A DNA stretch of 64,000 nt from an uncultured Anaeroplasmataceae bacterium. Its GTDB lineage: Bacteria > Bacillota_I > Bacilli_A > Acholeplasmatales > Anaeroplasmataceae. Made by a program: the position numbers and the translations under genes. Positions 4,903 to 58,060 of the stretch are shown piece by piece; position 1 is the first letter of the stretch, and each line of letters starts with the position of its first letter. Below the pieces are notes generated by a model that was not told the DNA's origin, ran no database searches, and saw only the letters and a list, made by a program, of their open reading frames with translations. The stretch lies in NCBI GenBank assembly GCA_964473015.1, contig CAYYMS010000002.1, forward strand, positions 154,550-218,549. Reading direction: 5' to 3'.

Positions 4903-4903
4903 T

Positions 4904-6503: not shown

Positions 6504-7096
6504 TTGCAATAATAGATTATGGGATTGGAAATCTTGGAAGTGTAAAAAATGCTTTTATAAATTTGCATTTTGATGTTATAGTAACTTCAAAAGAAGAGGA
6601 AATTTTATTGGCCGATAAAATCGTATTACCTGGTGTTGGTGCATTTGAAGATGCGATAAATGCCTTAAAGAAATTAAATTTGGACAAAGTCGTATTTAAG
6701 TGCATAGAAATGAAGAAACCCATTTTAGGTATTTGTGTTGGCATGCAAATGCTATTTGAATATTCCTATGAATATGGTAAACATAAGGGATTAGGTATTT
6801 TTAAAGGAAATATTATAAAATTTGATGAAGGTTTAGATAAGATTCCACATATTGGTTGGAATAAAATACATAAGCAATACCCAAGTAAATTATTAAATGG
6901 TTTAGATGATCCCTATGTTTATTTTGTTCACTCCTATCATGTGGATGCATCGTGCTATACCATTGCAACTACAAATTATGCAGGTGTAGAGTTTCCTTCG
7001 GTTGTTGCGAAGGATAATATTTATGCAACGCAATTTCATCCAGAAAAAAGTGGAGAAATCGGATTGAAAATTTTAAAGAATTTTGGTGATTTGTAA
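6500..7096 (+). CDS. hisH: Imidazole glycerol phosphate synthase glutaminase subunit
   Basis: Motifs DYGIGN, LPGVGAF, GICVGMQ, YFVHSY and QFHPEKS. Start at ATG 6500. Confidence 0.95.
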   Translation: MIAIIDYGIGNLGSVKNAFINLHFDVIVTSKEEEILLADKIVLPGVGAFEDAINALKKLNLDKVVFKCIEMKKPILGICVGMQMLFEYSYEYGKHKGLGIFKGNIIKFDEGLDKIPHIGWNKIHKQYPSKLLNGLDDPYVYFVHSYHVDASCYTIATTNYAGVEFPSVVAKDNIYATQFHPEKSGEIGLKILKNFGDL

Positions 7097-7806
7097 TGAA
7101 ATTATATCCAGCAATAGATTTACATAATGGAAAATGTGTACGGCTTTATAAAGGTGACTATAATGAAGTAACCGAATATGGGGATGCCATCTCTATGGCA
7201 CAAAAATGGAAAGATTGTGGAGCAAAATTTCTTCATTTGGTAGATTTGGATGGAGCCAAAGATGGAAATAGCCTAAATCTAACCTTAGTGAAAAAAATTA
7301 TTTCCGAAGTGAATATCGATTGTGAACTTGGTGGAGGAATCCGAACCATAAAGCAGATTCAAGAAATATTGGACTTAGGTATTTCTAGAGTTATTTTAGG
7401 CAGTGCGGCCCTAAATTTGTCTTTCGTAAAAGAAGCAATCGAAAAATTTGGAAATGAAAAAATTGTTATAGGTGTAGATTGTAAAGATTTTAAAGTGGCA
7501 ACAAATGGTTGGCTAAATGTTACTGAGATATCTGCTTTAGATTTTTCTTTAAAATTAAAAGAGGTAGGCGTGACAACAATTATATTTACTGATATTAGTA
7601 AGGATGGAACATTAGAAGGCATTAATCTAGAACAAACGAAAGTATTGCTTCAAACGGGTCTCAATGTTATTGCCTCTGGCGGAGCAAGGACACTAGCCGA
7701 TATTGAAAATGCGAAAGCTATTGGATGTGAGGGTATTATTTTAGGAAAATCCATCTATAGTGGTTCCATTGATCTTAAAGAAGCTATTTATAAATATGAG
7801 GATTAA
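7096..7806 (+). CDS. hisA: ProFAR isomerase
   Basis: Motifs PAIDL, HLVDLDGA, GGGIR, TDISKDG and ASGG. Confidence 0.95.
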   Translation: MKLYPAIDLHNGKCVRLYKGDYNEVTEYGDAISMAQKWKDCGAKFLHLVDLDGAKDGNSLNLTLVKKIISEVNIDCELGGGIRTIKQIQEILDLGISRVILGSAALNLSFVKEAIEKFGNEKIVIGVDCKDFKVATNGWLNVTEISALDFSLKLKEVGVTTIIFTDISKDGTLEGINLEQTKVLLQTGLNVIASGGARTLADIENAKAIGCEGIILGKSIYSGSIDLKEAIYKYED

Positions 7807-7809
7807 AAT

Positions 7810-8565
7810 ATGTTAACAAAACGAATTATTCCTTGCCTAGATGTAAAAGAAGGTAGGGTAGTAAAGGGCGTAAATTTCATAGATATAGTAGATGCTGGCG
7901 ATCCGGTTGCAGTTGCTAAGGCTTATTCAAATCTTCAGGCAGATGAACTTGTTTTTTTAGATATTACCGCTTCTTATGAAAAAAGAAGCATATTATTAGA
8001 TGTAGTCAAAAAAACGGCAGAGGTTGTTTTTATTCCTTTAACCGTCGGCGGTGGGATAAACACCTTAGAGGATATTAAGTCTATTTTAGATGCTGGTGCA
8101 GATAAAGTTTCAATTAATTCAGCTGCCGTAAAAGATCCAGATTTAATTAGTCGTGCAGCAAAAAAATATGGGAATCAATGTATAGTTGTTGCGATAGATG
8201 CAAAATTTAATGGGGAATTCTATGAAGTATATATTCATGGAGGAAGAACCAAAACAGGATTAAATGCTGTAGATTGGGCAAAAAAATGCGAACTATTGGG
8301 TGCTGGAGAAATCCTTTTAACAAGTATGGACTGCGATGGATGTAAAAAAGGATATGAATTAAATCTAACACGTGAAGTGGCAACCAAGGTAAATATTCCT
8401 GTTATTGCATCTGGAGGAGCCGGTTCTAAAAAAGATTTCTATGATGTTTTTACCATAGGTAAAGCAGATGCAGCACTTGCAGCATCCTTATTTCATTTTA
8501 AAGAATTAGAGATAAAAGAATTAAAAGAATATTTAAAGAATAAAGGAATTAATATGAGATTATGA
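7810..8565 (+). CDS. hisF: Imidazole glycerol phosphate synthase cyclase subunit
   Basis: Motifs [25 protein letters not shown] and [11 protein letters not shown]. Confidence 0.96.
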
Positions 8566-9209
8566 ATAAGAGTGAATTATTAAAGGAAGTAAAATATGAT
8601 TCGAACGGATTAGTCGTTTGTATCATTCAGGATTATCATTCGAAAAAAGTTAGAATGGTTGCTTATATGAATCAAGAGGCATTAGAACTCACTTTAAAAA
8701 CAAAACAAATGACCTATTTTTCAAGAAGCAGAAACACCTTATGGGTAAAAGGAGAAAGTTCAGGTTATTTTCAATACTTAAAAGGAGTTTCTATTGACTG
8801 TGATGGAGATGCCTTACTTTTCCAAGTGGAGCAAGTAGGTGGAATTTCTTGCCATACAGGAAATGCAAGTTGTTTTTATCGGGATTTAGAAGAGGATATT
8901 GAAATTACAGTGAATCGCAATAAAATCTCTTCTCATTTAAGTGAATTTCAAAATTTAGAGGAAACCATTCATGATAGAATGCTTCATCCTAAAGAGGGCT
9001 CTTACACGAATTATTTATTGGATAAGGGAGATAATAAAATCTTAAAAAAAATTGGAGAAGAAGCTACTGAGGTCATCATCGCTTGTAAAGAAAATAAAAA
9101 AGAAGAAATTATTTTTGAAATCACCGATTTGATTTATCATTTGACGGTAGAAATGGCTCTAAAAGGAATCTCTTGGAACAACATAGAAGAAGAATTAAAA
9201 AAAAGGTAA
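8562..9209 (+). CDS. hisIE: Bifunctional phosphoribosyl-AMP cyclohydrolase / phosphoribosyl-ATP pyrophosphatase
   Basis: Motifs SRSR..LW.KGESSG, DCDGD, CHTG..SCF, SYT..L and KKIGEEATE. Confidence 0.94.
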
Positions 9210-14113: not shown

Positions 14114-14456
14114 GGTAGTTGGGTAACTGAGCAAGAAATTGTTAGGAAAGTCCATGCTAGCACAGACTGAGATGTCTGTAGTGTTTGCGCCAATCGAAAA
14201 AATAAGATTGGGAACTCTTTAAGAGTTACGGCAAAGAAAAGCCTAAGTCTTCATAGATATGGTCTATCTTTTTAAAGTGCCACAGAGACGAATCTTTTAG
14301 AAATAAAAGATGTGAAACGTTGGTAAACCCCACAAGCTAGAAACCCAAATTTTGGTAGGGGAGCCTAAATAAACGAATTCAAGTTTTTAAGGACAATATA
14401 AGTAGATAAATAGTTACCGCCTTTTATAAGGTACAGAACATGGCTTATAGACTACT
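14114..14456 (+). ncRNA. rnpB: RNase P RNA, bacterial type B
   Basis: Conserved blocks AGGAAAGTCCATGCT, AGTGCCACAG, GGTAAACCCCAC and ACAGAACATGGCTTA. P1 pairing GTAGTT/GACTAC; upstream TTGAAA...TGtTATAAT promoter; downstream terminator. Confidence 0.93.
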
Positions 14457-18901: not shown

Positions 18902-19879
18902 TTATTTTATACTTTTTAATTTACTTTCTAAATATTCAGGTAACTCTTCTATAAATTTATATTTAGATATCGCCATATTCTTTGTATTCATTAACGTAGT
19001 TTTACAAATGAATCCATCTGCCTCAGGACATAATACTATGCCTATTGTATTAGAATCATTATTAGATTTTACATATGCATCTATATAGTTTGTATAAAAT
19101 AATAATTGTCCTATATATTCTGGTTTAAATTTAGTAGTCTTTAATTCTATAACAACATACGAATGTGAGGGTATATGATAAAAGAGTAGATCGATTTCAT
19201 AGCTTTCATTATCTGTCTTTAATTTGTATTTTTCACTGACAAAGGAAAAACCTGTACCTAACTCTAAAATAAATTTAGATATATTTTGTAAAAGGATGCT
19301 TTGAAGGTGTCTTTCGTTTTTAATTTGATTTATATTTATAAAATCAAAGACGTAAGTATCCTTAAATAATTCTTTTGTTAAATTGAAATCATTTGTGATA
19401 TGAATAGAAGTAGTAGGTATTATTAAGTTTCTTTCATAAGCCCTAAGTTTGAATTGATTTAAAACCATAGATCTTGACCATCCATTTTTATGTGTTTGAT
19501 TTATATACCACAACATTTCTTCATGAGAATTGCTTTTCGATATTATTTGGACAAGGGTGAACCAAGGAATTTGGCCAGCATGTTGCTGACTAATTTCAGA
19601 AATTGTAAATTTTTTGGCAAAAGTCACCATATATTTCAAATTTGAGATAGAATAGCCTTTTCCATATTCTTTTAAATCGTTCGATAACTTTTCTATATAT
19701 TTATTTCCCCATTGTTTTCTTTCATTTATGATAGTACCTATTTGATAATAGGTCATAATCATAGCGCTATTTACAACAATCATAGCCTTATTTTGGTTTT
19801 GTTTAATCGTTTCTTTAATTTTGGATAAATCTTTTAAATAATTTTTTTCAAATGATGTAATTTCTTTTTCTTTATTCAT
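18902..19879 (-). CDS. DUF1016/YhcG-family PD-(D/E)XK nuclease-domain protein
   Basis: N-terminal VNSAMIMTYYQIG..I...QWG..YIEKLS.DL; C-terminal ELGTGF.FV, EIDLLFYH, VVIELK and GQL.FY. Only minus-strand gene on this arm. Confidence 0.88.
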   Translation of the reverse strand: MNKEKEITSFEKNYLKDLSKIKETIKQNQNKAMIVVNSAMIMTYYQIGTIINERKQWGNKYIEKLSNDLKEYGKGYSISNLKYMVTFAKKFTISEISQQHAGQIPWFTLVQIISKSNSHEEMLWYINQTHKNGWSRSMVLNQFKLRAYERNLIIPTTSIHITNDFNLTKELFKDTYVFDFININQIKNERHLQSILLQNISKFILELGTGFSFVSEKYKLKTDNESYEIDLLFYHIPSHSYVVIELKTTKFKPEYIGQLLFYTNYIDAYVKSNNDSNTIGIVLCPEADGFICKTTLMNTKNMAISKYKFIEELPEYLESKLKSIK

Positions 19880-19900
19880 AGTAAATTCTTCCTCTTTTCT

Positions 19901-19938
19901 AAAAAATAAAAATCCTGCTAAGCAAAACTTAGCAGGAT
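19901..19938 (-). terminator. Terminator-like hairpin in the 5' leader of the DUF1016 gene
   Basis: Perfect 11-bp stem ATCCTGCTAAG-N5-CTTAGCAGGAT followed on - by TTTTATTTTTT, ending just before the RBS. Confidence 0.6.
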
Positions 19939-20215
19939 ATAAGAATATTAAGTTTATAAGTTAAATCATACTTAATATTTATTATTGTTTTCATAGTTTA
20001 ATTATAACATATAATTAGATTATGAAAAGTACTATTTTAAAATATTAAAGTCTTACTTTATTTTATTTAAAACAAAATAGAATTATGTTATAATTTGATA
20101 AAAGAAGGTATTATTGTTTATATTCAAAATGTTAAATTTGAATATATTTGTTGAAGGTTGGTTTTTGTTAAACTATATCAAAATTCAAAATTTGAATATC
20201 ATTGGAGGTATATAA

Positions 20216-21829
20216 ATGAAGAAAATAGATGTTATCGTTAAGGATAGAAACACTTTAATATTAGAAAGTGATGCGTTAAAAGGAGATTATATAGATTTAA
20301 CTCGTTTAAGCAATGTAGATTTTTCTATGATAGAATCTTTAATTGAAAGCGGTAAAGATAGAATCTATGAATCTAAATTAAATGATTTAAAAAAGACATT
20401 TTTATTAGAAAGTGAAAATAAAAACTTACAACTAAAAAAAGAATTGGAAAATAAAATTGTAGAATTAAACAATACCATATTGGAACTTACGAAAGAAAAA
20501 GAAAATTCATTAAAAGTAAAAGAATTAGAACTTAATAACATTCATCAAAAAGAGATTAATGATTTAAATTATCAATTGGAAACTTTAAAAAGAGAGCAAG
20601 AAAGTATTCTTAATTCTAAGATTTCAGATATGAAAGAAAATTATAATAAAACGATAAGTGATTTGAATTATGAAATTCAAAATTTGAAAAAAGAGAATTT
20701 GGATGCTCTTAAAGTAAAAGAATTAGAACTTAATAGCATTCATCAAAAAGAAATCAATGATTTAACTCATCAGCTAAATGTTTTAAAGGCCCAACATGAG
20801 GATATGGTTCTATTAAAGCTTGCTGGAGTGAAAGAAGAATATACAGAAAAGATAAATAACTTAACTATTTCTAAAGAAAAAGAGATATCTGATTTATCAA
20901 TGAAGTTAGAAAAATTAAAAGCAGAATATGCGATTGCTGAAGAAAAGAAAGCTGGAGAATTTAACAAGGTTATAAATGATTTAAAAATTAAATATCAAAA
21001 TGAGATAAATGAAAAGGAAAATACAATACATTCTTTACAACGTCAAAAAGCCTCTTTAAATGTAAAACAAACTGGAGAGGATTTGGAAAGCTGGTGTAAT
21101 AATGAGATGATTTCTTATATGCAAAATGGACTTTTTAATTGTACATGGAGCAAGGATAATCTTGTTGTTAAAGAAGATGGAGAAGTAAAGGGTAGCAAAG
21201 CAGATTATATCTTTAAGATATATGCAGACTCCTCTCATAAGGAAGAGGAGTTACTTGCAGGTGTTTGCTTAGATATGAAGGATGAAAACCCAGATTCTAT
21301 AAATAAAAAGAAAAATGCCGATTACTACAAAGATTTAGATAAGAACCGAAATAAAAAGAATTGCAAATATGCCGTTTTAGTTTCGAATTTAGAATTAGAT
21401 AAGCCGAATGATTTGCCTATATATAAGGTTTTAGAGTACAAGGATATGTATGTTGTTCGACCAGCCTATATGATTACGCTATTAAATCTTTTAGCCTCTT
21501 TATCCAAACGCTTTGCCGATTTAATACTGGCCGATAGCAATGAGAAATTAGAGTTAAAGAATTCGAGAGAATTAATGGAAGAATTTGATGATCTTAAAAA
21601 AACATATTTAGATAAGCCTTTAGAAAAATTAGGAAAAGATATTGAGAGTATTAAGAATAGTAATGATAGTATCTTGAAGGCATCTAGAAAAATAGATGAA
21701 TTATGTGATTCTATAACTAGAAGTTATGTAGGACAAATTAAGGATAAATTAGAAAAATTTGAAATAAAGTTAAGTCGTGAATATAAAAAATATGTAAAAA
21801 AAGAAGAAAAAATAGTTGTTAGTGATTAA
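20216..21829 (+). CDS. DUF2130-like coiled-coil protein
   Basis: Long coiled coil followed by KQTGEDLESWC, KADYIF, MKDE and YAVLVSNLE, which resemble DUF2130 proteins. Confidence 0.7.
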   Translation: MKKIDVIVKDRNTLILESDALKGDYIDLTRLSNVDFSMIESLIESGKDRIYESKLNDLKKTFLLESENKNLQLKKELENKIVELNNTILELTKEKENSLKVKELELNNIHQKEINDLNYQLETLKREQESILNSKISDMKENYNKTISDLNYEIQNLKKENLDALKVKELELNSIHQKEINDLTHQLNVLKAQHEDMVLLKLAGVKEEYTEKINNLTISKEKEISDLSMKLEKLKAEYAIAEEKKAGEFNKVINDLKIKYQNEINEKENTIHSLQRQKASLNVKQTGEDLESWCNNEMISYMQNGLFNCTWSKDNLVVKEDGEVKGSKADYIFKIYADSSHKEEELLAGVCLDMKDENPDSINKKKNADYYKDLDKNRNKKNCKYAVLVSNLELDKPNDLPIYKVLEYKDMYVVRPAYMITLLNLLASLSKRFADLILADSNEKLELKNSRELMEEFDDLKKTYLDKPLEKLGKDIESIKNSNDSILKASRKIDELCDSITRSYVGQIKDKLEKFEIKLSREYKKYVKKEEKIVVSD

Positions 21830-21913
21830 TAAATTAAAGAAAAAAAGATAGAATATAAAAGTTCTATCTTTTTTCCTTGTGTTTGAAAGTTTTATAGAGT
21901 ATAATAAATTTGT

Positions 21914-21998
21914 CATATTAAGGGGAGGCGTAAAGCCTGAGAGGATAAGGATCTACCCTTGACCTGATCTAGGTAATGCTAGCGTAGGGAATAATGTG
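21914..21998 (+). ncRNA. TPP riboswitch aptamer
   Basis: Elements GGGG...CTGAGA...ACCCTT-GACCTGATCTAGGTAATGCTAGCGTAGGGAA. Downstream terminator ATGTCC-TAGC-GGACAT-T-run (22046-22066) precedes thiT. Confidence 0.92.
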
Positions 21999-22087
21999 AG
22001 AAGTAGTTTTTTGGATTTATACTTCATCTATATTCTTTTTTAAGCATGTCCTAGCGGACATTTTTTATTTTTAAAAAGGAGAAAGAC

Positions 22088-22774
22088 ATGAAAACAAAAA
22101 AATTTTCAACGAGAGTCCTTGCTGAAATCGCTATTTTTGCAGCTTTAGCTTTTGCTCTTGACGCACTTCAAGGAGGTATCTGGAAAGGCGTATTTTTAAG
22201 TGGTGGATCAATTGGATTTGCCATGGTACCAGTATTTTTAATTTCTTATCGTAGAGGATTAATTCCTGGTATTTTATGTGGTTTTATTTTAAGTATTGTT
22301 CAAATGCTTGGAGGGGTATATTCCATCAATGCTTCAAGCTTCGAAAATCAATTTTTACAGGTTATGGGACCATTTTTACAAATAATGCTTGATTATGTTT
22401 TGGCATATACAGTAGTAGGCTTTGCAGGTGCTTTTGCCAAAGTATACAGCAAAGGTAAATCTAATTATCAAAAAATAACTTGTATCATTTTAGGTTGTTT
22501 GGTTGGAGGGTTATTAAAATATGCCTGCCATGTAATAGCTGGTGGTGTATTTTGGCTAAATCAAGGTTCAACCTTCTGGAATGTATCCGATACAGGATGG
22601 GGATATTCCTTCTTATATAATGGTGCTTATTGTATACCTAATATTATGATTTGTACAGCCGTTATGATTATACTTGCAAAAGTATATCCACAATTAGTAA
22701 ATCCAAATGAAGTTGTAATGGAAAAGGAGGAAATTATAAATGAAGAATTTAAAGAAGAATCTAGTCAAGAATAG
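22088..22774 (+). CDS. thiT: ECF transporter S component for thiamine
   Basis: Motifs LAEIAIF.ALA..LD, GGSIG, DYVLAY and YSFLYNG; lies under a TPP riboswitch. Confidence 0.88.
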   Translation: MKTKKFSTRVLAEIAIFAALAFALDALQGGIWKGVFLSGGSIGFAMVPVFLISYRRGLIPGILCGFILSIVQMLGGVYSINASSFENQFLQVMGPFLQIMLDYVLAYTVVGFAGAFAKVYSKGKSNYQKITCIILGCLVGGLLKYACHVIAGGVFWLNQGSTFWNVSDTGWGYSFLYNGAYCIPNIMICTAVMIILAKVYPQLVNPNEVVMEKEEIINEEFKEESSQE

Positions 22775-25370: not shown

Positions 25371-26303
25371 ATGAAGAAAAAAGAAGAGAAAGAAATTATA
25401 TTTTATGAGATTTCTGATTTTAAATACTATTTACAAACCGATAAAAGGGCATCGAAAAATACGATTAATGCTTATTTAAGTGATTTAGAACTTTATGCTG
25501 AATTCTTAAAAAAGTATCAGGGAGTATCAGATGTTACAGAAATAGATAGAGAACATATACAAAAATATATTTTATCTCTTAAAAGAAAAGAGCTATCTAA
25601 GCAATCAATCGCAAGAAAAATTATAGCTATCAAAGAATTTCATAAATTCTTATTTACCGAAAATATTATGAGAGAAAATCCAGCGCATCTTATTGATACG
25701 CCTAAAGCAGATAAAGCATTACCTGTCGTATTAACCAAAGAAGAAATTGATAAGATGCTTTCGTCTATACCATTAGATAAGCCCATAGACATTCGAAATC
25801 GAGCAATGATGGAAACCTTATATGCTTCTGGTCTTCGTATTTCAGAATTGCTAGAGCTTCGCCTTTCAAATCTACATTTAAGAGAAAAATACATGATTGT
25901 TATTGGTAAGGGGAATAAAGAACGTATGGTTCCTTTAGGAGAGATGGCAGTTATATATTTAAGAAAATATATAGAATCAGCTAGAACAAGTCTTACGAAA
26001 GGAAATACGGATTTATTATTCTTTAATTATAAGGGCGATAAAATGTCTAGACAAGGATTTTATAAGTATATCGTTACCCTTGCAAAAGATTGTGGAATTA
26101 AAAAGGAAATATCTCCTCATACGATTCGACATAGCTTTGCAACCCACCTTTTAGAAGGTGGTGTAGACTTAAGAATTGTACAAGAACTTTTAGGGCATGA
26201 AGATATTTCTACAACACAAATTTATACGCATATTGATAAGTCAAAATTAAAAAATATGTATGATCAAACCCATCCCCTAGCAAAAAGAAAGGAAGAAGAA
26301 TAA
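25371..26303 (+). CDS. xerD: Site-specific tyrosine recombinase XerD (RipX-like)
   Basis: Motifs [32 protein letters not shown] and LLGH..ISTTQIY; adjacent to deoB like Bacillus ripX-drm. Confidence 0.9.
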
Positions 26304-28647: not shown

Positions 28648-28660
28648 TCGTCTATATAAT

Positions 28661-28685
28661 AGGTGGTGAAAACCACCTTTTTTTT
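28661..28685 (+). terminator. Intrinsic terminator after the ADH gene
   Basis: AGGTGGT-GAAA-ACCACCT followed by a T-run. Confidence 0.75.
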
Positions 28686-28695
28686 CGTCAATAAA

Positions 28696-28969
28696 TTAGT
28701 TTTTAATACTAGATAAAACTATGTTTGTTATTTTAGTTTATGTTTTTCAATAATTCATTATAGAGTGAATAAAAACTTTTAGTTTCTGAAATATTTAAAG
28801 AATCGGATTCATAAATGAACTCTTTTTCCATAAAATAATAGCAATAAAAAATCAAAAAAGAAGTAGTTTATAATGAATAATTCTTTAAAAAAGAGTCTAA
28901 GAAAAGAAGTAACTTAAGGAAAAAGCATATATTAAAAAATTTCGAAAATAATCTAGTTTTTAATACTAG
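28696..28969. repeat. 17-bp quasi-palindrome (C/T)TAGTTTTTAATACTAG, two copies left of dif
   Basis: Copies at 28696-28712 and 28953-28969; further copies at 33396-33412 (variant) and 33509-33525. Confidence 0.7.
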
Positions 28970-29614
28970 AAAATAAAAATCTTTCTATAACGTCAATAAA
29001 ATAAAATGAACCGTTATTTAGTAATAAAAATTAGAAACATATTATAAAATTATATAAAGATCTTAGTCCATAATCAAACGGATTATTGAAAATAAATTTA
29101 AAAGCTAAATACAAGAGATAATCATCTATAGAATTAATATAAACTAAAGAAATTTTTTTGGCATTCATTTAGTTTTCAAAACTATATTAAGCGAGTTTTA
29201 AAAATATAATTAAACATATATAAATATAGAATAACTATTTTTTAAAATCTTATATTTATTGAAATTATTTTAAGAAAATAGTTGTAATTTGAAAGTTAAA
29301 TGTAAATATTTTATAAATTGAGCATTTCAGGCCATAAACTATATAAAATCTGTAAAAATGGACCTCAAATGGGCACATTGACTATATTTAATACGTAAGC
29401 AAAGCTAAATTAACCAATTCATCTATGACACGTTGATAATGATTCTGGATCGCGATGCTTCAAACAATTTTATTTTATATTAAAAATCAAAAAAATGAAC
29501 ATGTCCAAAATATCGACAAATCGATTTATGATTATCCTTAAAAAAAATTTGTCAAACGCTTAAATAAAAGGTTGAAAAAACATTGATTTCAAGCCATTTT
29601 TCAAGATAGAGGGA

Positions 29615-29642
29615 TATGTGTATAATTTTCGTTATACACATA
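29615..29642. repeat. Perfect 11-6-11 inverted repeat with dif-like geometry
   Basis: TATGTGTATAA-TTTTCG-TTATACACATA, 36 bp left of dif. Confidence 0.75.
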
Positions 29643-29678
29643 CATTAAATAAATCGCATAGTTAAGCCATTTTTAAAT

Positions 29679-29706
29679 GGTTTACATAATATATATTATG
29701 ATAACT
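29679..29706 (-). other. dif chromosome dimer resolution site
   Basis: Minus strand reads AGTTATCATAA-TATATA-TTATGTAAACC. Central hexamer and XerD arm match B. subtilis dif as recalled (ACTTCCTAGAA-TATATA-TTATGTAAACT). Lies at the gene-orientation switch near xerD and parEC. Confidence 0.85.
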
Positions 29707-30402
29707 TATTAAGATATCCAAAAACATAAAATATCCCATTTGAAAATAACTAGAAGAGGTGTTTGACTACGTTTATTTACATAAAAACTGAAACTTCTAC
29801 TTCTTAAACACGTTCAAATGAATATATTTGAGCATGTTTAGGTTTTTGACCTTTTTTGACATATCAATCGATTTATTGTTTTTCGGGTATTCCACCATCT
29901 CATCGCCTATTTTCACTCAAATTCTGAAACAACTGCGTTTTAAGGATATATTTAAAATATCCAAATAATATCTAAAATTCCCTCGCTTCTTCTCTACTTC
30001 TTCTCTGTTTTTGGATATATACACCTGAATATGCCCTAAAATTGGGCCTATTTTCCCCCTTGCTTCTTCTATTTATTTTTAAGGGAAAAGCCCTTATTTT
30101 CTCATATTTTAAGAAAATTAGCTTATTTAGAAGGTTTTTTATGCTTATTTCTATTTACATTTAAATTTTATTCTTTATTTGTACACTATTTATGTCTATT
30201 TTAAAAATAAATGAAATATGTTATTTGTCTATTTTAATGTTGAAAAATGTTAATATAGTCTTCTCATTTTTATGCTTATTCTTTATCATTTTATTTGATT
30301 CTTTTAATTTTCATTTATTAAAAACAATTTTTTTTATTTCAATTATAAAATTATTCTAACAAAAAAAAGAGACATTATTTATGTCTATAAAAAAAGAGGG
30401 AG

Positions 30403-40927: not shown

Positions 40928-41488
40928 TTAATTACCCTTTTTTTCTTGGTAATGTTTTAGCGCCTCAGCAAATCTTTGATAATGTATATTCTCTCTTTGT
41001 CTTAAGAAGGATAAAGGGCCTAAAATTTCTGGATTATCGGTTAAATCCATTAGATGCTCATAAACCGCTCTAGCTTTTTCTTCTGCTGCCATATCCTCAG
41101 TTAAATCCGCAATTACGTCTCCTGAAGAAGCTAGAAGTTTTACTGTATAAGGATTATCTCCTGCATCGGTAGGATAAATTCCTCCTGCATGATCAGCATA
41201 CAACGCTTCAAGTCCTGCTTTCTTGTAATCTTCTGCTGTACAGCCTTGCGTTAAACCTTTCATCATAGCAATCAGAATTTCGATATGAGCCATTTCTTCT
41301 GTAGCAATTTCGGTAAGTAAATTTCTACCAACCAAATCAGGCATAGTCGGTGCCTGCATAAAATAACGAATGCATGCGTTTAATTCTCCTGCATAGCCTC
41401 CAACTTGTGTAATCAAAATTTTTGCAAATTTTAAATCCGGTTTGCTTATATGAACAGGAAATTCTAAATATTTTTTATATTCCCACAT
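40928..41488 (-). CDS. cotJC: Manganese catalase-family spore coat protein CotJC
   Basis: Motifs TQVGG..GEL....RY, IATEEMAHIE, EDMAAEEKAR..YE.L and FLRQRE..H.QRF. Confidence 0.88.
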   Translation of the reverse strand: MWEYKKYLEFPVHISKPDLKFAKILITQVGGYAGELNACIRYFMQAPTMPDLVGRNLLTEIATEEMAHIEILIAMMKGLTQGCTAEDYKKAGLEALYADHAGGIYPTDAGDNPYTVKLLASSGDVIADLTEDMAAEEKARAVYEHLMDLTDNPEILGPLSFLRQRENIHYQRFAEALKHYQEKKGN

Positions 41489-41871
41489 TATTTTTCACTC
41501 CAAGGAAGTTTTAAATCAAAGAAACCATTTAATATTTCACTACCACAGGAAAGAGCAGAAAATTTAGTTTCTATAAATTCACAAATTTTTTTCTTTTCAG
41601 AATTTACTTTTTTTAACATTTCAAATGCTTCTTTATTATTTGGATGTGTACATATATATAAAGTCAATTCAATTCCAGTAAACGTGTATACCTCTAACAT
41701 ATAGATTGCACGTTCAAAATCGGAATTAAAACTAATTTTATCTACTTTATACTTATAAGGGATATATAAATTTTCCCAAATAGAGCCTTTTAAAAATCCT
41801 TTTTCTATATCATTATCAATCACAAATGGCTGAGAGTTTATTTCTAATGTCTTAATAAATATCACTCCCAT
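41488..41871 (-). CDS. cotJB: CotJA-CotJB-like fused spore coat protein
   Basis: CotJA-like GFLKGSIWENLYIPYK followed by CotJB-like ELTLYICTHPNNKEA and terminal PW; directly upstream of cotJC. Start uncertain (41871 ATG or 41856 ATT). Confidence 0.75.
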   Translation of the reverse strand: MGVIFIKTLEINSQPFVIDNDIEKGFLKGSIWENLYIPYKYKVDKISFNSDFERAIYMLEVYTFTGIELTLYICTHPNNKEAFEMLKKVNSEKKKICEFIETKFSALSCGSEILNGFFDLKLPWSEK

Positions 41872-41961
41872 AGTTATTCTATGAGTGGGTATATTATAAT
41901 CATAGGCAAAAATCAAAACCTTTTAGAAAAAAGAAAAAAGCCGTTAACCGGCTTTATATTC

Positions 41962-42129
41962 TTATTCAGCAACGATAGCATCTACTGGGCAAACTGCTTC
42001 ACAAGCACCACAATCAATACAAGTATCAGCATCAATAACAGATACTTCTTCAACTGTAATTGCACTAACAGGACACTCAGGAGCGCATGCGCCACATCCA
42101 ATACAAGAATCTGTAACTTTTCTAGGCAT
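41962..42129 (-). CDS. 2[4Fe-4S] ferredoxin, 55 aa (absent from the ORF track)
   Basis: Hand translation MPRKVTDSCIGCGACAPECPVSAITVEEVSVIDADTCIDCGACEAVCPVDAIVAE; two CxxCxxCxxxCP motifs; AAAGGAGGA RBS and downstream terminator. Confidence 0.95.
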   Translation of the reverse strand: MPRKVTDSCIGCGACAPECPVSAITVEEVSVIDADTCIDCGACEAVCPVDAIVAE

Positions 42130-52102: not shown

Positions 52103-53086
52103 TTAACCTAAATTTGCTTTAAATACTCTTAAAGCATTCAAATGGGTTATTTTATCAATTTCTAAATCTGTAAAGTCTTCTTCTTTCATTCTCTTTATTA
52201 ACCGAGTCATTAAAGAAGCATCTTTTAATTCAATGTCGGAAGGTATTCCATCAAAATCACTTCCTAAGGCCAAAACATCTACTCCTACTAAATTTTTAAT
52301 ATATTTCATATGAGCAATAACACAATCGATTGTATTTTTTCCTTGTTCTTCATTATCATCTAAAAATGCGGCACAATAATTCATTCCCATAATACCACCA
52401 TTTTTAGAAAGCGCAACAATCATATCATCCGTTAAATTGCGAACATGATGACAAACCGACCTTGCATTGGAATGAGAAGCAACGATAGGTTTATTTGTTA
52501 TATTTATAACATCCCAAAAGCCTCGATCCGATAAGTGAGAAACATCAACAATCATACCCAATCGATTCATTTCTTTTACCATGGATTTCCCAAAATCAGT
52601 TAATCCATTTACAGTATTTGGAGTTACAAAATCAGGTATACCATTGTAATATTTTCCATAATTTGGATGACCAACTCCATTTTCGTAATTCCAATTTAAG
52701 CAAATCATTCGGACACCCAAACGATAAAAATTTCTTAAAAAGGAAAGATTGGATTTACATACGCCGCCCTCTTCTATTGTTAGTATTGTTGAAATTTTTT
52801 TGTTGCTATGATTGGATAACAAATCTTGATAGGTATACGCTATTTTTACATTTGTATTTTTTTCAATTTCCTGATAAAATAAATCAATCATTTCAAGGCA
52901 AGTTTCCAAAGGATTATCCTCTGTGTAATGCACAAACATAGCAAAGCATTGGGCATAATAATCCACATGAACTAATTTTTCAATATCAATTTGTAGATTG
53001 GATCTTGATAGTTCCATCTTATTTCCTTTTTTATTTTCTTGATAAATCCTACCTATTGTATCACAATGTAAATCAAAAAAACTCAA
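52103..53086 (-). CDS. Membrane dipeptidase family (M19) peptidase
   Basis: Motifs DLHCDT, TIEEGG, VDVSHL, ASHSNAR, HVRNLTD and GSDFDG. Confidence 0.9.
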   Translation of the reverse strand: MSFFDLHCDTIGRIYQENKKGNKMELSRSNLQIDIEKLVHVDYYAQCFAMFVHYTEDNPLETCLEMIDLFYQEIEKNTNVKIAYTYQDLLSNHSNKKISTILTIEEGGVCKSNLSFLRNFYRLGVRMICLNWNYENGVGHPNYGKYYNGIPDFVTPNTVNGLTDFGKSMVKEMNRLGMIVDVSHLSDRGFWDVINITNKPIVASHSNARSVCHHVRNLTDDMIVALSKNGGIMGMNYCAAFLDDNEEQGKNTIDCVIAHMKYIKNLVGVDVLALGSDFDGIPSDIELKDASLMTRLIKRMKEEDFTDLEIDKITHLNALRVFKANLG

Positions 53087-53788
53087 TTATAATACCTCCT
53101 TAACAAAATTTAAGAACTCTGTTAAAGTATATGTAGGCATATCGATTTTTAAGTTATTCGTATTAATTAAAAAATCAGTAATTAATATTTTTTTTATTTC
53201 TTTTGGTAAATCGGAGAAATCATCTTCTACATCATTTCCAACCATGATGCTACCTTCCATTTTTAAATTTAGTTTTTCAAAAATTTCTTCATAATATAAA
53301 TGATTTGGTTTACAATAGGTACTATTTTCATAAGTGGAAATATAGTCAAAATCATCCGGATTCATATTAGCCCATCGAATTCTTTGTTCGGTACAAATTC
53401 TAGGAAATAACGGATTAGTAGCTAATATAATAAAATAGCCTTTTTTCTTTAATTCTTTAATAATCTCATTTGAGATAGATTGCACCTGAACTATATTGGA
53501 AATGGTATTAAATTCATTTAAATAAAAATCATAAAATACATCTTTTAACCGATCTACATCTGGGTAAGTTTTTTTCATTTGCTTCCAAAATAATTCTTCA
53601 TTCGTTACCCTACCATCATTTTTAACGATGGTATAAGCCGCTTTAGAAAAGGTTTGAAGAAATTCATCTGGCTGATAGCCTAATTCTTTTGCCTTCATAT
53701 ATACTAAATTAAAGTATTGTTTTAAAAATATATCTTGATTCATCTGTAATAGGGTACAATCCAAATCAAATAATATTACAGGTTTCAT
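53087..53788 (-). CDS. HAD-family hydrolase
   Basis: Motifs LFDLDCTL, ATNP, CKPN..YY and MVGND..DD. Confidence 0.85.
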   Translation of the reverse strand: MKPVILFDLDCTLLQMNQDIFLKQYFNLVYMKAKELGYQPDEFLQTFSKAAYTIVKNDGRVTNEELFWKQMKKTYPDVDRLKDVFYDFYLNEFNTISNIVQVQSISNEIIKELKKKGYFIILATNPLFPRICTEQRIRWANMNPDDFDYISTYENSTYCKPNHLYYEEIFEKLNLKMEGSIMVGNDVEDDFSDLPKEIKKILITDFLINTNNLKIDMPTYTLTEFLNFVKEVL

Positions 53789-53790
53789 AT

Positions 53791-54297
53791 TTATTCCTCA
53801 TTTACAAGATATTGCATAATTTCACAAACATACATTTTATGCATATCTCCACTCGAATAAAATTTGTTTTTTAAATCCTCAGGTAAGGCATCATATGGAA
53901 GATCTAAAGCATAAAGTTTTTTCATTTTTAATACATAGTCTGCCTCACATACATAATATCCATTAAAATCGATATCAAAAGTTGCATGTAATCCAGTTTC
54001 TTTAAATTTATCGATTTTATTTCCAGATACGGTTCCAAAATAATTCTTTGCTTCTTTATAGGAATCATTTAAAAAAGATAATGTTACACTATTTGATTTT
54101 TCTATGAAATTATAGGTATGTCTAGAATGTCTTACAAATATAAATGCAATATTTTTTCCCCATAATACTCCTAAGCCACCCCAAGATACGAGCATAGAGT
54201 TAAATCCATTTTGATCTCCACAGGTAAGGATAGGACATACATCTTTAAAATTTTGAAATATATTGTGATTAAATTCTTCTAATCTCTTTTTTAACAT
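53791..54297 (-). CDS. Flavin reductase-like protein
   Basis: Motifs FNSM..SWGG.G.LWGK, FVR.SR.T, GTVSG...DK and D.H.MY.CEI. Confidence 0.8.
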   Translation of the reverse strand: MLKKRLEEFNHNIFQNFKDVCPILTCGDQNGFNSMLVSWGGLGVLWGKNIAFIFVRHSRHTYNFIEKSNSVTLSFLNDSYKEAKNYFGTVSGNKIDKFKETGLHATFDIDFNGYYVCEADYVLKMKKLYALDLPYDALPEDLKNKFYSSGDMHKMYVCEIMQYLVNEE

Positions 54298-54309
54298 ATT
54301 TTTCTCCTT

Positions 54310-55179
54310 TTAATTAAAAATCAGAACTAAAATACATGCTAACAAATTATTTGCCATATGAGCGGCTATTGAAGCGTAAACATTATGATCGGATTTATGA
54401 TAGATGAAACATAATAAAGCTCCACTTGATGCATAGGGAACACATTGTAAAAGCCATACACCAAAATTGGTCATATTCGTAGAAATCATATGTGGTAAAG
54501 TAAATAAGATAATGGAGATAATATAGCAGGCAACGATGCTATATTTTTTAAATACAGAAAATATGACTTTACGGTAAATTAATTCTTCTACTACCGGTGC
54601 AAGTAAAACAGTAGCTAAAATCATAGGAAGCATTCCGCCATTACTTAAAATTATTTCAATTGTGGATTGATTGGCTGAACTTGGCACACAAAAACCAATA
54701 ACAAAATCGATAAGATACGTTACGACTACAAAAAATACTGCCATTACAGGAATGTAGATTGACAAATAATTCTTCTTTTCTTTTAAAGCATTAAAATCAG
54801 TAACAATGTCATCACGCATAAAAAAGGCAACACCAACTAAGGCAATGAAATATCCTAAAAAATTTCCCCAGCCTTGGGCAATGGCATTAACTTTTAGATA
54901 AGGCGCTTCATAAGAACTTAAATCGGTAGTCGAAAGGCTTTCTAATACTGTAGCCGTATCCAAACGATTTAGAATTCCAAGAAAAAGAGCAATACCAATT
55001 GAAATAAATCCTGCAAATAAAAAAAGCATTAAAATATATATTACCGTTGCGACTCCTTTATTGGGACTAAAAATGGTCTTTTTCTTTTTAATGGTGACAT
55101 TTGCATTTTGATTTTGCATATTTACGTTTTGATTTTCAATATTTTCATTTTCTATATCTTTATTTTGATTTTCATTCAT
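54310..55179 (-). CDS. CPBP (CAAX-protease-like) intramembrane metalloprotease
   Basis: Motifs APVVEELIYR, FT.PH and H..NN; multiple TM helices. Confidence 0.87.
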   Translation of the reverse strand: MNENQNKDIENENIENQNVNMQNQNANVTIKKKKTIFSPNKGVATVIYILMLFLFAGFISIGIALFLGILNRLDTATVLESLSTTDLSSYEAPYLKVNAIAQGWGNFLGYFIALVGVAFFMRDDIVTDFNALKEKKNYLSIYIPVMAVFFVVVTYLIDFVIGFCVPSSANQSTIEIILSNGGMLPMILATVLLAPVVEELIYRKVIFSVFKKYSIVACYIISIILFTLPHMISTNMTNFGVWLLQCVPYASSGALLCFIYHKSDHNVYASIAAHMANNLLACILVLIFN

Positions 55180-55267: not shown

Positions 55268-55618
55268 TTATGATTTTGGTTTGAAAATTAAAGCGATTAG
55301 CACGGAAAGAAAAATAGCAAAGGCAATACCACCAGAGGTCTTATCATACATTCCTGTAAAGATTCCTATGAAGCCTACCTCTTGTGCTTTTGCAAAGCTT
55401 GCATGAGCTAAAGAATGCCCAAAGCTTGTTATAGGAAGTAAAGCACCTGCCCCACTTATTTTAATTAATTGCTCATAGGCATGATTAAAATCTAAAAGTG
55501 TTCCTAAGCATACAAACATAACCGTCATATGCCCTGTGGTAAGCTTTAATGCATTTTTTATTAATTCTGCTAATGCACAAATGCCACCACCAATGAAAAA
55601 CGCACATAAATATATCAT
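55268..55618 (-). CDS. spoVAE: Stage V sporulation protein AE
   Basis: Motifs AFFIGGGICALAE, GAGALLPITSFGHSL and ALIFKPK. Start at ATG 55618. Confidence 0.88.
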   Translation of the reverse strand: MIYLCAFFIGGGICALAELIKNALKLTTGHMTVMFVCLGTLLDFNHAYEQLIKISGAGALLPITSFGHSLAHASFAKAQEVGFIGIFTGMYDKTSGGIAFAIFLSVLIALIFKPKS

Positions 55619-55620
55619 AA

Positions 55621-56595
55621 TTATACTGCCTCCAATTCTATCACATGTGCAATACATGGCAACGAATTTTTTTGATTGATCATAGTAGGATTCATTAAGA
55701 CTCCAGTTGCACATAGTAAAACACGTTTTAATTCTTTTTTCTCCATTTTCTTTTTTACGTAGGATAATAGTACAGCAGCACTTGTTCCTGGACCACTACC
55801 ACCTGCAAAGACTGGTTGCTTCTCAACATCATATAATATTAAGCCGCAATCCTGATAATTCGTAAGGGTAGGATACCAATCTTCTAAGCCTTTTTTTACG
55901 ACTTCATATCCATAACTAGATAAATCTCCTGTAAGAATTAAATCATAATTTTCTGGTTTTGTTCGTGTCTCTCTAAAATGTTCTATTAAAGATTCTAAGG
56001 CTGCGGGTGCCATTGCTCTACCAAAGTCTAAAGCATCGGTAAATCCTATATCAATGACTTTCCCTAAAGTAAAGCTATTTATTTTAATTTTTGATTTCGT
56101 ATTTCCAATAATGCAGGATGCCGCGATCGTCGAGGTAAAGGTTTGCGTATCTTCTTTTTCTCCTCCATATTCCACTGGATTACGGAATTGTCTTTCCGCA
56201 CTTTGATTATTACTTGAAGTAAAAACCAAAGCATTCTTGACGGTATTTTTATCGATTAATAAGGAGGCAAGACCAATCCCTAAAGCAATGGTCGAGCAGG
56301 CAGAATAAATACCAATTAAGCTAATTAAAAGCTTTCGCATCGTATAGCTTGTTGTGGTAAGCTGGTTGGATAGTTCTCCACCAACAGCTATATCTATATC
56401 TTCTGGCTTTACATTCATTTTTTCAAAAAGCATATCGATGGACTGAGATAACATGGATATTTCACTATTTTCGAAGCAATCCTCTTTAAAATCGGATACA
56501 TAATCCAAATAGGAGGCGATAGGCCCTTTGCCCTCTAGTTTTCCTCCTAATACCATACTATCTAAAAGATAAACATTATTTATTTTGAAGTTCAT
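55621..56595 (-). CDS. spoVAD: Stage V sporulation protein AD
   Basis: Motifs GKLEGKGP, SACST, SAERQFR.P.EYG, G.AMAPAA, TGDL, GGSG and ATG.LM.P. Confidence 0.9.
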   Translation of the reverse strand: MNFKINNVYLLDSMVLGGKLEGKGPIASYLDYVSDFKEDCFENSEISMLSQSIDMLFEKMNVKPEDIDIAVGGELSNQLTTTSYTMRKLLISLIGIYSACSTIALGIGLASLLIDKNTVKNALVFTSSNNQSAERQFRNPVEYGGEKEDTQTFTSTIAASCIIGNTKSKIKINSFTLGKVIDIGFTDALDFGRAMAPAALESLIEHFRETRTKPENYDLILTGDLSSYGYEVVKKGLEDWYPTLTNYQDCGLILYDVEKQPVFAGGSGPGTSAAVLLSYVKKKMEKKELKRVLLCATGVLMNPTMINQKNSLPCIAHVIELEAV

Positions 56596-57035
56596 AGTAA
56601 CACCTCAAAAATATATCGAATTGCAGAAACAACAATAGCACAGGTAGTACCTAAAACAATAACACTTCCAGCAAGCTTTAAACAGTTACTACCAATACCT
56701 AAAACAATACCCTCTTTTTTATATTCCATTGCAGAGCTTACACAGGCATTTGCAAAGCCTGTAATCGGAATGGCAAGACCACATTTTGCAATTTGTCCTA
56801 AATCATCATATATTCCGATTGCAGATAATATACCTGCAAAAGAAATCATTATAATTAATAAATAAAAATTCGCATCATCGGGACTTGTAAAATTTTTTAA
56901 TACATCTAATATGATTTGTCCGGTTAGACATAAAACTCCTCCAAAGAAAAAAGCCTGTAAAAAGTTAAGAAGCATTCGTTTATAATCTCGTTCATAACTA
57001 ACAAGCTTTGCATAATATTTTTTTGAATTCTGCAT
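56592..57035 (-). CDS. spoVAC: Stage V sporulation protein AC
   Basis: Motifs AF..GG..C..GQ, G.YD, PITGFAN...S.A.EYKKEG and LAGSVIV. Confidence 0.9.
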   Translation of the reverse strand: MQNSKKYYAKLVSYERDYKRMLLNFLQAFFFGGVLCLTGQIILDVLKNFTSPDDANFYLLIIMISFAGILSAIGIYDDLGQIAKCGLAIPITGFANACVSSAMEYKKEGIVLGIGSNCLKLAGSVIVLGTTCAIVVSAIRYIFEVLL

Positions 57036-57049
57036 AATATCACCAAATA

Positions 57050-57079
57050 TATTATGCTTACAAAATTATCCTTTTATAC
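57050..57079 (-). promoter_or_regulatory. Sigma-G-type promoter upstream of spoVAC
   Basis: Minus strand GTATA-N18-CATAATA, matching the B. subtilis sigma-G consensus; spoVA is a known sigma-G operon. Confidence 0.7.
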
Positions 57080-57495
57080 TACCATTTTTTTTCAAAATGT
57101 AAAAAGGTTCCTTCATTTTTTTTACTTTCGACGATTAGATTATCGCAAAACATTTCCATAATTGTAAATCCTAATCCACTTCTTTCTTCATCCGCTTTTG
57201 TAGAAAATAAAGCTTCTCTTGCTAAATCGATATCTTCTATTCCAACGCCTTTATCCATAATTTCAATGATCACCTTGTCCGCTTTAACAAAAATATTCAT
57301 ATCAATATATTTATCTTCGTTATTATCATAGCCATGAACAATGGCATTCGTTATCGCTTCACTTACTACTGTTTTTAATTCATTAATAAAAGTAATGGTA
57401 GGATTATTATCTACTAACATAGCTCCCAACATATTTCTTATAACTGCAATATTTGTTCTTTTTGATAAAAAAGTCATTCTTACTTCATTTTCCAT
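57079..57495 (-). CDS. spoIIAB: Anti-sigma factor / Ser kinase SpoIIAB
   Basis: N box ELKTVVSEAITNAIVHGY, G1 DKGVGI, G2 ERSGLGFTIME. Confidence 0.92.
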   Translation of the reverse strand: MENEVRMTFLSKRTNIAVIRNMLGAMLVDNNPTITFINELKTVVSEAITNAIVHGYDNNEDKYIDMNIFVKADKVIIEIMDKGVGIEDIDLAREALFSTKADEERSGLGFTIMEMFCDNLIVESKKNEGTFLHFEKKW

Positions 57496-57496
57496 T

Positions 57497-57847
57497 CTAA
57501 TTTCCCCCTATTGTCATTAAAGTAGCATCTTCTGTTTCTTTTATTAAACAAATTTTTCCTAATCCTGATAATTGTATAATACGTTCTATTTTTGGATTTA
57601 TACTGCAAATCATTACATCACCATTTAACTTTTTTAACTGATGAAATCTTCCTATGATAAAGCCTATACCAGAAGAATCCATAAAATCAAGCTTTTCTAC
57701 ATTGATAATTAAATGCTTTATTTTATAATCATCAATATACCTACTTATTCTTGTTCTTAAATCCGTTACAGATAAATCATCTAGCTCTCCTTTTAATCTT
57801 AGGATTAAAGCATTGCCTTTTACATATACTCCAACAGAAAGTCCCAT
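57497..57847 (-). CDS. spoIIAA: Anti-anti-sigma factor SpoIIAA (STAS)
   Basis: Motif RLKGELD and phosphoacceptor motif DFMDSSGIG.IIGR. Confidence 0.9.
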   Translation of the reverse strand: MGLSVGVYVKGNALILRLKGELDDLSVTDLRTRISRYIDDYKIKHLIINVEKLDFMDSSGIGFIIGRFHQLKKLNGDVMICSINPKIERIIQLSGLGKICLIKETEDATLMTIGGN

Positions 57848-57895: not shown

Positions 57896-57902
57896 TTCGA
57901 CA
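57896..57902 (-). promoter_or_regulatory. Spo0A box upstream of spoIIAA
   Basis: Minus strand TGTCGAA, a perfect TGNCGAA match, 48 bp before the start codon. Confidence 0.45.
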
Positions 57903-57986
57903 AAACTAGAACTTTATTTCGTTTTACAAATTTCGTGCATTTTTATAAAAAAGAAAACGGCTAAATTAGCCGCTTATATTTTATAC

Positions 57987-58060
57987 TGGTGCTCACTGTA
58001 AGAATCGAACTTACCTTTTGGCCTTACCATGGCCACGTTCTACCGATGAACTAAGAGAGC
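57987..58060 (-). tRNA. tRNA-Thr (GGT)
   Basis: Cloverleaf GCTCTCT / GTTC D-stem / TGGCC-ATGGTAA-GGCCA / GTAAG-TTCGATT-CTTAC / AGTGAGC-A-CCA. Confidence 0.93.

Follow-up and report, generated by a model that had tools for sequence, protein, structure and literature searches.

A spoIIAA-spoIIAB-spoVA block without an intervening sigF gene in Anaeroplasmataceae-type gut Bacilli

Few gene arrangements of endospore formers are as constant as the placement of sigF directly after spoIIAB. The canonical spoIIA locus of Bacillus and Clostridium is tricistronic (spoIIAA, spoIIAB, sigF), and in several relatives of the organism studied here it forms part of a supra-cluster with the order dacF-spoIIAA-spoIIAB-sigF-spoVAC-spoVAD-spoVAEb. 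Here we analyse a 64-kb stretch of DNA from an uncultured Anaeroplasmataceae bacterium (the window; all coordinates are positions in it unless a locus is named), in which a block on the minus strand reads spoIIAA, spoIIAB, a 43-nucleotide (nt) spacer, spoVAC, spoVAD and spoVAEb, with no sigma gene in between as judged from the open reading frames (ORFs). Very probably, the absence of sigF reflects a real and ancient excision, the remaining SpoIIAA/SpoIIAB switch is functional and its partner sigma factor is encoded elsewhere. The original prediction offered two readings, a sigF moved elsewhere and a reduced circuit in which SpoIIAA/SpoIIAB control another sigma such as sigma-G, and either is compatible with the observations: the circuit may have been rewired or may simply have become unlinked.

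The spoIIA-spoVA junction and its distribution

The first gene of the block, spoIIAA (57497..57847, minus strand like the other block genes), encodes a predicted anti-anti-sigma factor of 116 amino acids (aa) with a STAS domain (PF01740 at 2.9e-23). It is followed by spoIIAB (57079..57495), whose 138-aa product is a predicted anti-sigma factor and serine kinase of the GHKL type (TIGR01925). From the spoIIAB stop codon to the ATG of spoVAC there are 43 nt, and no sigma ORF follows spoIIAB either there or elsewhere in the 64 kb; the spoIIA part thus consists of two genes instead of three, and this holds clade-wide. The SpoVA core comprises spoVAC (56592..57035; PF03862 at 2e-32), spoVAD (55621..56595; PF07451 at 7e-103) and spoVAEb (55268..55618; PF03862), with the Pfam domains in the order C-D-Eb. 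All three proteins pass the Pfam models but miss the NCBIfam equivalog cutoffs (TIGR02838, 133 bits versus 164; TIGR02845, 331 versus 412; TIGR02839, 118 versus 131), and are therefore divergent members of their families. The start of spoVAEb is most likely at 55618, instead of the longest-ORF start at 55714: its product is 116 aa long in every public-contig gene call, which makes this length more likely than the 148 aa given in the original prediction.

Upstream of spoIIAA, dacF is absent. At the site that it occupies in sister lineages lies a gene for tRNA-Thr(GGT) (57987..58060, minus strand; ARAGORN and Rfam RF00005), immediately upstream of the block, together with an ABC transporter. A terminator-like hairpin with a T run (57955..57975, minus strand) is located 3' of the tRNA and is predicted to insulate spoIIAA from upstream transcription. 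Both the gap between spoIIAB (57079) and spoVAC (57035) without sigF and the lack of dacF, as read by the original prediction from the sequence, are borne out by these data.

Since the window derives from a metagenome-assembled genome (MAG), sigF might have been deleted from 57036-57078 by an assembly or binning artefact, and a misassembly at about 57040-57080 had been named beforehand as an observation that would overturn the finding. At least 10 independent runs have yielded Logan contigs with the same gene order, and proteins identical to SpoVAD, LspA and the ABC permease of the window occur on contigs of many independent runs with the order at the junction unchanged. Moreover, 57002-57186 is covered without a joint by a contig from run X1 that belongs to a related strain. 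As the junction also recurs in other species, the artefact is refuted and its likelihood vanishingly small; misassembly, strain-level accident and gene decay are excluded.

The distribution of the sigF-less order was determined by two scans with a SpoIIAB alignment as query. The first covered one genome per GTDB species, with synteny evaluated by our own script, and yielded 80 loci. The four closest species, all Anaeroplasmataceae with SpoIIABs 57-69% identical to that of the window (L009-L012), carry spoIIAA-spoIIAB-spoVAC-spoVAD-spoVAEb without a sigma gene. In 75 of the remaining 76 loci a sigma ORF directly follows spoIIAB, and one locus stops at a contig edge. The second scan, of JGI/ENA metagenome contigs, is counted over the 80 matches listed: 66 loci carry the sigma gene, 7 end with the contig and at least 7 are sigma-less (L100, the human-gut lineage L107-L112 and the 1.6-kb contig L113). 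Two more species, very abundant in the gut (L186-L190), possess the same sigF-less block; one of the two occurs in 3,254 indexed blocks of the sequence collection. Among the matches listed in both scans, and apart from contig ends, the sole sigma-less loci are those of the sigF-less clade and L113, while about 140 of about 140 other loci from Bacilli and Clostridia have a sigma gene directly after spoIIAB. Neighbour-joining trees of SpoIIAB unite the sigF-less loci, apart from L113, in a single clade, whose sister group consists of genome-reduced Bacilli that keep the sigma gene. Every related species examined shows the sigF-less order, in answer to the synteny comparison originally proposed, and the operon is an old trait of the whole clade, at the level of the family or above.

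Contig L113 (JAEIGA010688160.1) carries spoIIAA-spoIIAB-spoVAC without a sigma gene at 318-1583, and its SpoIIAB groups with sigma-bearing lineages. It may represent a second, independent excision of sigF, a placement based on a short contig and a distance (neighbour-joining) tree. Two related abundant gut species carry spoIVA, a hallmark gene of the mother-cell coat, at a distance of 3-6 kb downstream of their sigF-less block; it encodes 488 aa with all three SpoIVA Pfam domains (L186, 15580-17046; L189, 18078-19544).

The sister lineages reveal the probable ancestral state. Their order is dacF-spoIIAA-spoIIAB-sigma-spoVAC-spoVAD-spoVAEb, in part followed by gerA, as seen in L014, L089, L092 and L095. 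The sigma factor of these lineages is only 150-206 aa long, retains regions 2 and 4 while region 3 is shortened or absent, and scores 57-77 bits against a SigF equivalog cutoff of 321. Examples of such a mini-SigF (153-198 aa), named merely 'sigma-70 family' by PGAP, directly follow spoIIAB in L013 (4607-5104), L014 (10404-10979), L017 (10407-10994), L089 (10001-10597) and L098 (10001-10462). In the sigF-less clade, SpoIIAB ends at a conserved KKW, and the spacer measures 34-160 nt. Neither between spoIIAB and spoVAC nor across about 307 kb of clade DNA did tblastn or a profile hidden Markov model (HMM) detect a remnant of a sigma gene. As the nearest sigF-bearing relatives keep the full cluster, the event looks like a clean one-gene excision of sigF in the ancestor of the clade. 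According to this comparison, the ancestor possessed the complete dacF-to-spoVAEb cluster, and sigF alone was removed from it in the common ancestor of the Anaeroplasmataceae-type gut clade; the excision would have placed the spoIIAB stop codon against the -35 element of a pre-existing putative spoVA promoter.

The partner switch and its putative control sites

SpoIIAB of the window scores 155.5 bits against the anti-sigma-F equivalog TIGR01925 (cutoff 135), compared with 50 and 45.6 bits against the RsbW models (cutoffs 145 and 155), from which it is remote. Residues 1-136 align without gaps to the solved Geobacillus stearothermophilus SpoIIAB (1TH8_A/1L0O), and the N box (SEAITNAIVHGY), the G1 box (DKGVGI), the G2 box (ERSGLGFT) and Arg20 are all present. 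Arg20 we take to be a contact residue for both sigma and SpoIIAA. In 24 SpoIIAB proteins of the clade, Glu46/Asn50, D81xGxG85, G107xG109 and Arg20 are invariant, as are 49 of the 138 columns overall. Pairwise ratios of nonsynonymous to synonymous substitution (dN/dS) among five species are lowest for spoIIAB among the five block genes (0.09-0.30; rough values, since dS is saturated).

The sigF-less clade conserves helix 1, which bears Arg20, at least as well as sigma-bearing groups do. Glu16 and Glu36, which canonical SpoIIAB proteins keep at 95% and 74%, are replaced by Val/Ile and Val/Phe, respectively, in the sigF-less clade (Ile16 and Phe36 in the window) and likewise in the mini-SigF lineages. 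Because the replacements are common to both groups, the alteration of helix 1 goes along with the shrinking of SigF and is older than the loss of sigF from the locus.

SpoIIAA passes the superfamily model TIGR00377 (90 bits versus a cutoff of 53) and falls slightly below that of the equivalog TIGR02886 (110.8 versus 114.75). Its FMDSSGIG segment aligns to the phosphoserine motif FMDSSGLG of Bacillus subtilis SpoIIAA (1AUZ), and the protein also aligns to 1TH8_B; the serine in DSSG is therefore the predicted phosphoacceptor. The view that both switch proteins are intact, based initially on the DSSG motif and the N, G1 and G2 boxes, is upheld by these alignments to proteins of known structure. 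All five genes of the block are intact and under purifying selection across a family-level divergence, at which dS is saturated. The intact motifs and the purifying selection suggest that SpoIIAA and SpoIIAB still constitute a functional partner switch. With switch proteins this well kept, the partner sigma would still have to exist, encoded elsewhere.

Two putative control sites flank the spoIIA genes. The heptamer TGTCGAA (57896..57902, minus strand), located some 50 nt 5' of the spoIIAA ATG, matches the consensus of the 0A-box, the binding site of Spo0A. It is part of the motif TTTGTCGAA, which the window shares with L009, L010 and L011 at this place, and L012 has TTTGTCAAA. The site suggests expression of spoIIAA and spoIIAB from a Spo0A-dependent promoter.

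The second site, GTATA-N18-CATAATA (57050..57079, minus strand), is located in the 43-nt spacer and resembles a sigma-G/sigma-F-type promoter for spoVA, with its -35 element overlapping the spoIIAB stop codon. As a consensus match it has the features of a sigma-G-type promoter (-35 G-ATA and a CATACTA-like -10, 17-18 nt apart, upstream of spoVA). The pattern GTATA-N17/18-CATANTA matches once in the 64 kb on both strands, with 0.16 matches expected; 15 of 100 shuffled sequences carry one somewhere. At the equivalent place, the -10 element is CATACTA in L009, L010 and L100, and AATACTA in L012. Sister lineages display GTATA-N16/17-AAAAAATA between sigF and spoVAC; since they carry an equivalent site 5' of spoVAC, the spoVA promoter appears to predate the excision and to have been spared by it. 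The spoVA genes are thus probably transcribed separately from their own sigma-G-type promoter, and the conservation of a forespore-type promoter suggests that a sigma factor of the F/G family is encoded somewhere in the clade genomes. As no terminator was found in the window between spoIIAB and spoVAC, read-through from spoIIA is also possible.

It is improbable, in our judgement, that the sporulation programme is defunct or repurposed, with the block either a relic or in control of, for example, a general stress response or a vegetative channel for dipicolinic acid or ions. The clade is uncultured and no spores of it have been observed, cultured Anaeroplasma reportedly has no wall and forms no spores (PMC10868615), dacF is gone from the locus, and SpoIIAA and the SpoVA proteins stay below their NCBIfam equivalog cutoffs. 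Against this stand the purifying selection on five intact genes described above, a SpoIIAB that passes the anti-sigma-F cutoff and remains far below that for RsbW (50 versus 145 bits), the conserved forespore-type promoter and the retention of spoIVA, cotJB and cotJC.

The search for the sigma partner

All six frames of the window were searched with B. subtilis SigF and with two profile HMMs, and no sigma-70-family ORF was found; nor was a sigma gene detected in the 10 kb beyond the left end of the window and about 4 kb beyond its right end. The local SigF and SigG sequences of B. subtilis served as homology probes only; they detected all of the 150-odd sigma genes adjacent to spoIIAB. A sigma gene hidden nearby is rejected, as phmmer, tblastn and the two profile HMMs gave no match in the window, its flanks and the approximately 307 kb of clade loci.

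A profile built on mini-SigF was run against a set of 5.8 billion proteins and exhaustively against 1.84 billion representatives. It retrieved 629 relatives in the indexed protein set and 78 at E below 1e-30 among the representatives. Genomic context was obtained for part of the SigF-like families, so that the search is no exclusion of a relocated sigF; canonical SigG proteins were too numerous to be sifted. The source labels of the sigma matches were 'Bacilli', 'Acholeplasmataceae' and 'Mycoplasmatota' only, with no tie to Anaeroplasmataceae, and a scan of viral contigs with one unplaced SigF-like family gave no match.

The AT-rich family P0379 was considered as the relocated sigma of the clade and rejected, because it belongs to an RF39-like lineage with a STAS-sigma pair and no spoIIAB. 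In this lineage (L184, 9649-10657; GCA_017536505.1, JAFXHG010000027.1; also L185), a gene for a 115-aa SpoIIAA-like STAS protein is followed after 4 nt by a gene for a 218-aa SigF-like sigma factor, and no spoIIAB is found between or near the pair in L184. This agrees with the report that RF39 is devoid of spoIIAB (PMC10868615). The RF39-like sigma family comprises 5,389 proteins at E<=1e-10 among 8,000 candidates scored, and is the sole exception, following spoIIAA alone, among the SigF-like families with context.

We have a slight and tentative preference for a partner that is an unlinked, probably divergent sigF ortholog, such that the locus reflects a plain rearrangement of an otherwise standard cascade. 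Galperin et al. (2022 preprint, bioRxiv 10.1101/2022.02.25.481979) recovered sigF from all the spore-formers of their survey, and several SigF-like families are still without context, both of which speak for this outcome. SpoIIAA and SpoIIAB would then remain a working partner switch, probably turned on by Spo0A before septation through the 0A-box-like site, and their target in trans would be a forespore sigma of the sigma-F/sigma-G family whose gene is unlinked; spoVA would be driven by a sigma of the same family from its own promoter in the spacer.

Several observations weigh against this account. SigF-like families P0178, P0185, P0238, P0225, P0191 and P0207, whose context was looked up, lie directly after spoIIAB, as do the further families matched to fetched loci, and no unlinked sigF was found among the SigF-like families with context obtained. 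The top SigF-like matches lack the very high contig counts found for proteins of the abundant species of the clade, and in none of about 140 other lineages is sigF unlinked from spoIIAB. The exact adjacency of spoIIAB and spoVAC is what a single deletion is expected to produce, while relocation needs a duplication and a deletion. In addition, the Spo0A-box and promoter readings derive solely from consensus matches.

Alternatively, sigF may truly have been lost, leaving its close paralog sigma-G as the sole forespore sigma factor, which would be made before septation, held by SpoIIAB and then freed by the SpoIIAA cycle once in the forespore. The result would be a three-sigma cascade in which SpoIIAA/SpoIIAB gate sigma-G and sigma-G drives spoVA; we take the possibility seriously, while doubting it. 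The simplest event would be one clean deletion, in keeping with reductive evolution, and the SigF of the sister lineages had already shrunk at the expense of region 3. In B. subtilis, SpoIIAB can bind sigma-G, and before septation sigG shares a transcript with spoIIGA-sigE that starts at the Spo0A-dependent spoIIG promoter. The -10 element of spoVA in the clade is a classical sigma-G CATACTA/CATAATA, compared with AAAAAATA in the sigF-bearing sisters, and none of the SigF-like families searched was assignable to the clade as an orphan. The module is also labile in reduced Bacilli, in that the RF39-like lineage keeps spoIIAA and sigF without spoIIAB, and L113 is a possible second sigF-less case, although it is a 1.6-kb contig placed by a neighbour-joining tree only. 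However, the sigma search covered about 307 kb of clade loci, short of whole genomes, and neither sigG nor any other clade sigma was among the loci examined. That many sister lineages keep a short SigF indicates that it is not generally dispensable, and the occurrence of sigF in all surveyed spore-formers (bioRxiv 10.1101/2022.02.25.481979) argues in the same direction.

The corresponding claim at the level of the organisms, a clade without any sigF and with endospore-like development under sigma-G as the single forespore sigma gated by SpoIIAA/SpoIIAB, is also possible and marginally more doubtful still. If true, it would provide a living three-sigma cascade and would line up with the spoIIAB-less RF39 lineage and the mini-SigF lineages as a natural series in the dismantling of the sigma-F switch. 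Two consequences are conceivable: SpoIIAB and sigma-F can do without tight linkage and translational coupling, or sigma-F itself is dispensable when sigma-G can substitute; the latter would bear on the origin and reducibility of the four-sigma cascade. The locus is of interest for the evolution of sporulation, and it bears on whether uncultured Anaeroplasmataceae, long filed with the wall-less, non-sporulating Mollicutes, pass between hosts as spores.

Host, genomic surroundings and comparison with known systems

The closest SpoIIAB proteins (61-87% identical) come from metagenomes and MAGs only, and those with names belong to Acholeplasmatales, Anaeroplasmataceae or Anaeroplasma, in agreement with the Mollicutes-related host suspected from the sequence. 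One SpoIIAB homolog is labelled 'Anaeroplasma bactoclasticum', a name that here comes from MAGs and not from the cultured type strain; as all named accessions are MAG proteins, they permit no inference on the cultured wall-less A. bactoclasticum. The G+C content of the window is 26-35%. Sporulation genes, spo0A among them, are present in most Anaeroplasmataceae genomes, and mur genes occur in 40-60% of the genomes (Field, Bowerman and Hugenholtz 2024, PMC10868615); sigF is unmentioned there, and PMC7301438 makes no mention of sporulation. In the literature searched, we found no mention of a sigF-less spoIIA-spoVA operon, of the mini-SigF series or of the STAS-sigma pairing. The term 'undescribed system' in the original prediction was too strong: sporulation and peptidoglycan genes in Anaeroplasmataceae had been reported (PMC10868615), though not the sigF-less operon.

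Downstream of spoVAEb, genes for a CPBP/Rce1-like intramembrane protease, a flavin reductase, a HAD hydrolase and an M19 dipeptidase (52103..55179, minus strand) are conserved, in the same order across the sigF-less clade with the HAD hydrolase present in some members; we make no claim that they belong to the switch. The protease-to-dipeptidase block also occurs at L012 (12342-15245) and L186 (12335-14654), and sister lineages have gerA and RNase J in its place.

As initially noted, the window contains cotJ genes, namely cotJC (40928-41488, minus strand; manganese catalase family) and cotJB (41488-41916, minus strand); no cotJA was recognised near them (40928-42129). They are preceded by a 55-aa 2x[4Fe-4S]-type ferredoxin-like ORF, read from the sequence (42129-41962), and a terminator-like hairpin. 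A -10-like CATAGAATA upstream of cotJB is ambiguous between the sigma-E and sigma-K types.

Further features include a 1.75-kb A+T-rich stretch without any ORF of at least 60 aa (28648-30402), at which the GC skew turns from positive to negative and gene orientation from plus to minus; this switch marks it as a likely replication terminus. A gene for a XerC/D-type recombinase (25371-26303) lies 2.3 kb to its left. A complete histidine operon (hisZ-like, hisG, D, C, B, H, A, F, IE) spans 1794-9209, which one would not expect of a small genome related to Mollicutes. Next after recO comes a class B RNase P RNA (271 bits; 14115-14452), and a thiamine pyrophosphate riboswitch (21911-22008) precedes a gene for a YuaJ-type thiamine transporter (22088-22774). 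Between lepA/HIT and this transporter (18902-21829), a gene for a YhcG-type PD-(D/E)XK nuclease on the minus strand adjoins one for a 537-aa DUF2130 protein, possibly a small mobile or defence insert.

Compared with the canonical spoIIA locus of Bacillus and Clostridium, the first two genes are orthologous and agree in order, overlap, motifs and the Spo0A-box-like site upstream, whereas sigF as the third gene and dacF upstream are absent here. The supra-cluster of L014, L089, L092, L095, L044 and L045 shares the flanking genes, their order and a GTATA element with an A/T-rich -10 before spoVAC; here, in contrast, sigF is excised to leave a 43-nt gap, and the gerA that follows spoVAEb in the sisters is replaced by the CPBP protease block. 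The mini-SigF sisters ('Bacilli bacterium' and 'Acholeplasmataceae bacterium' MAGs) fall with the present clade into one wider group of genome-reduced gut Bacilli and share the changes at Glu16 and Glu36 of SpoIIAB, but keep their sigma directly after spoIIAB, where the clade described here has none. RsbV-RsbW-SigB follows the same partner-switch logic of STAS and GHKL proteins; however, the SpoIIAB studied here reaches 155 bits as an anti-sigma-F factor, compared with 46-50 bits as RsbW, and its context of spoVA and spoIVA is that of sporulation. The RF39-like locus L184 is another dismantled sigma-F partner switch in reduced Bacilli with the converse loss, the anti-sigma kinase missing and the sigma factor kept.

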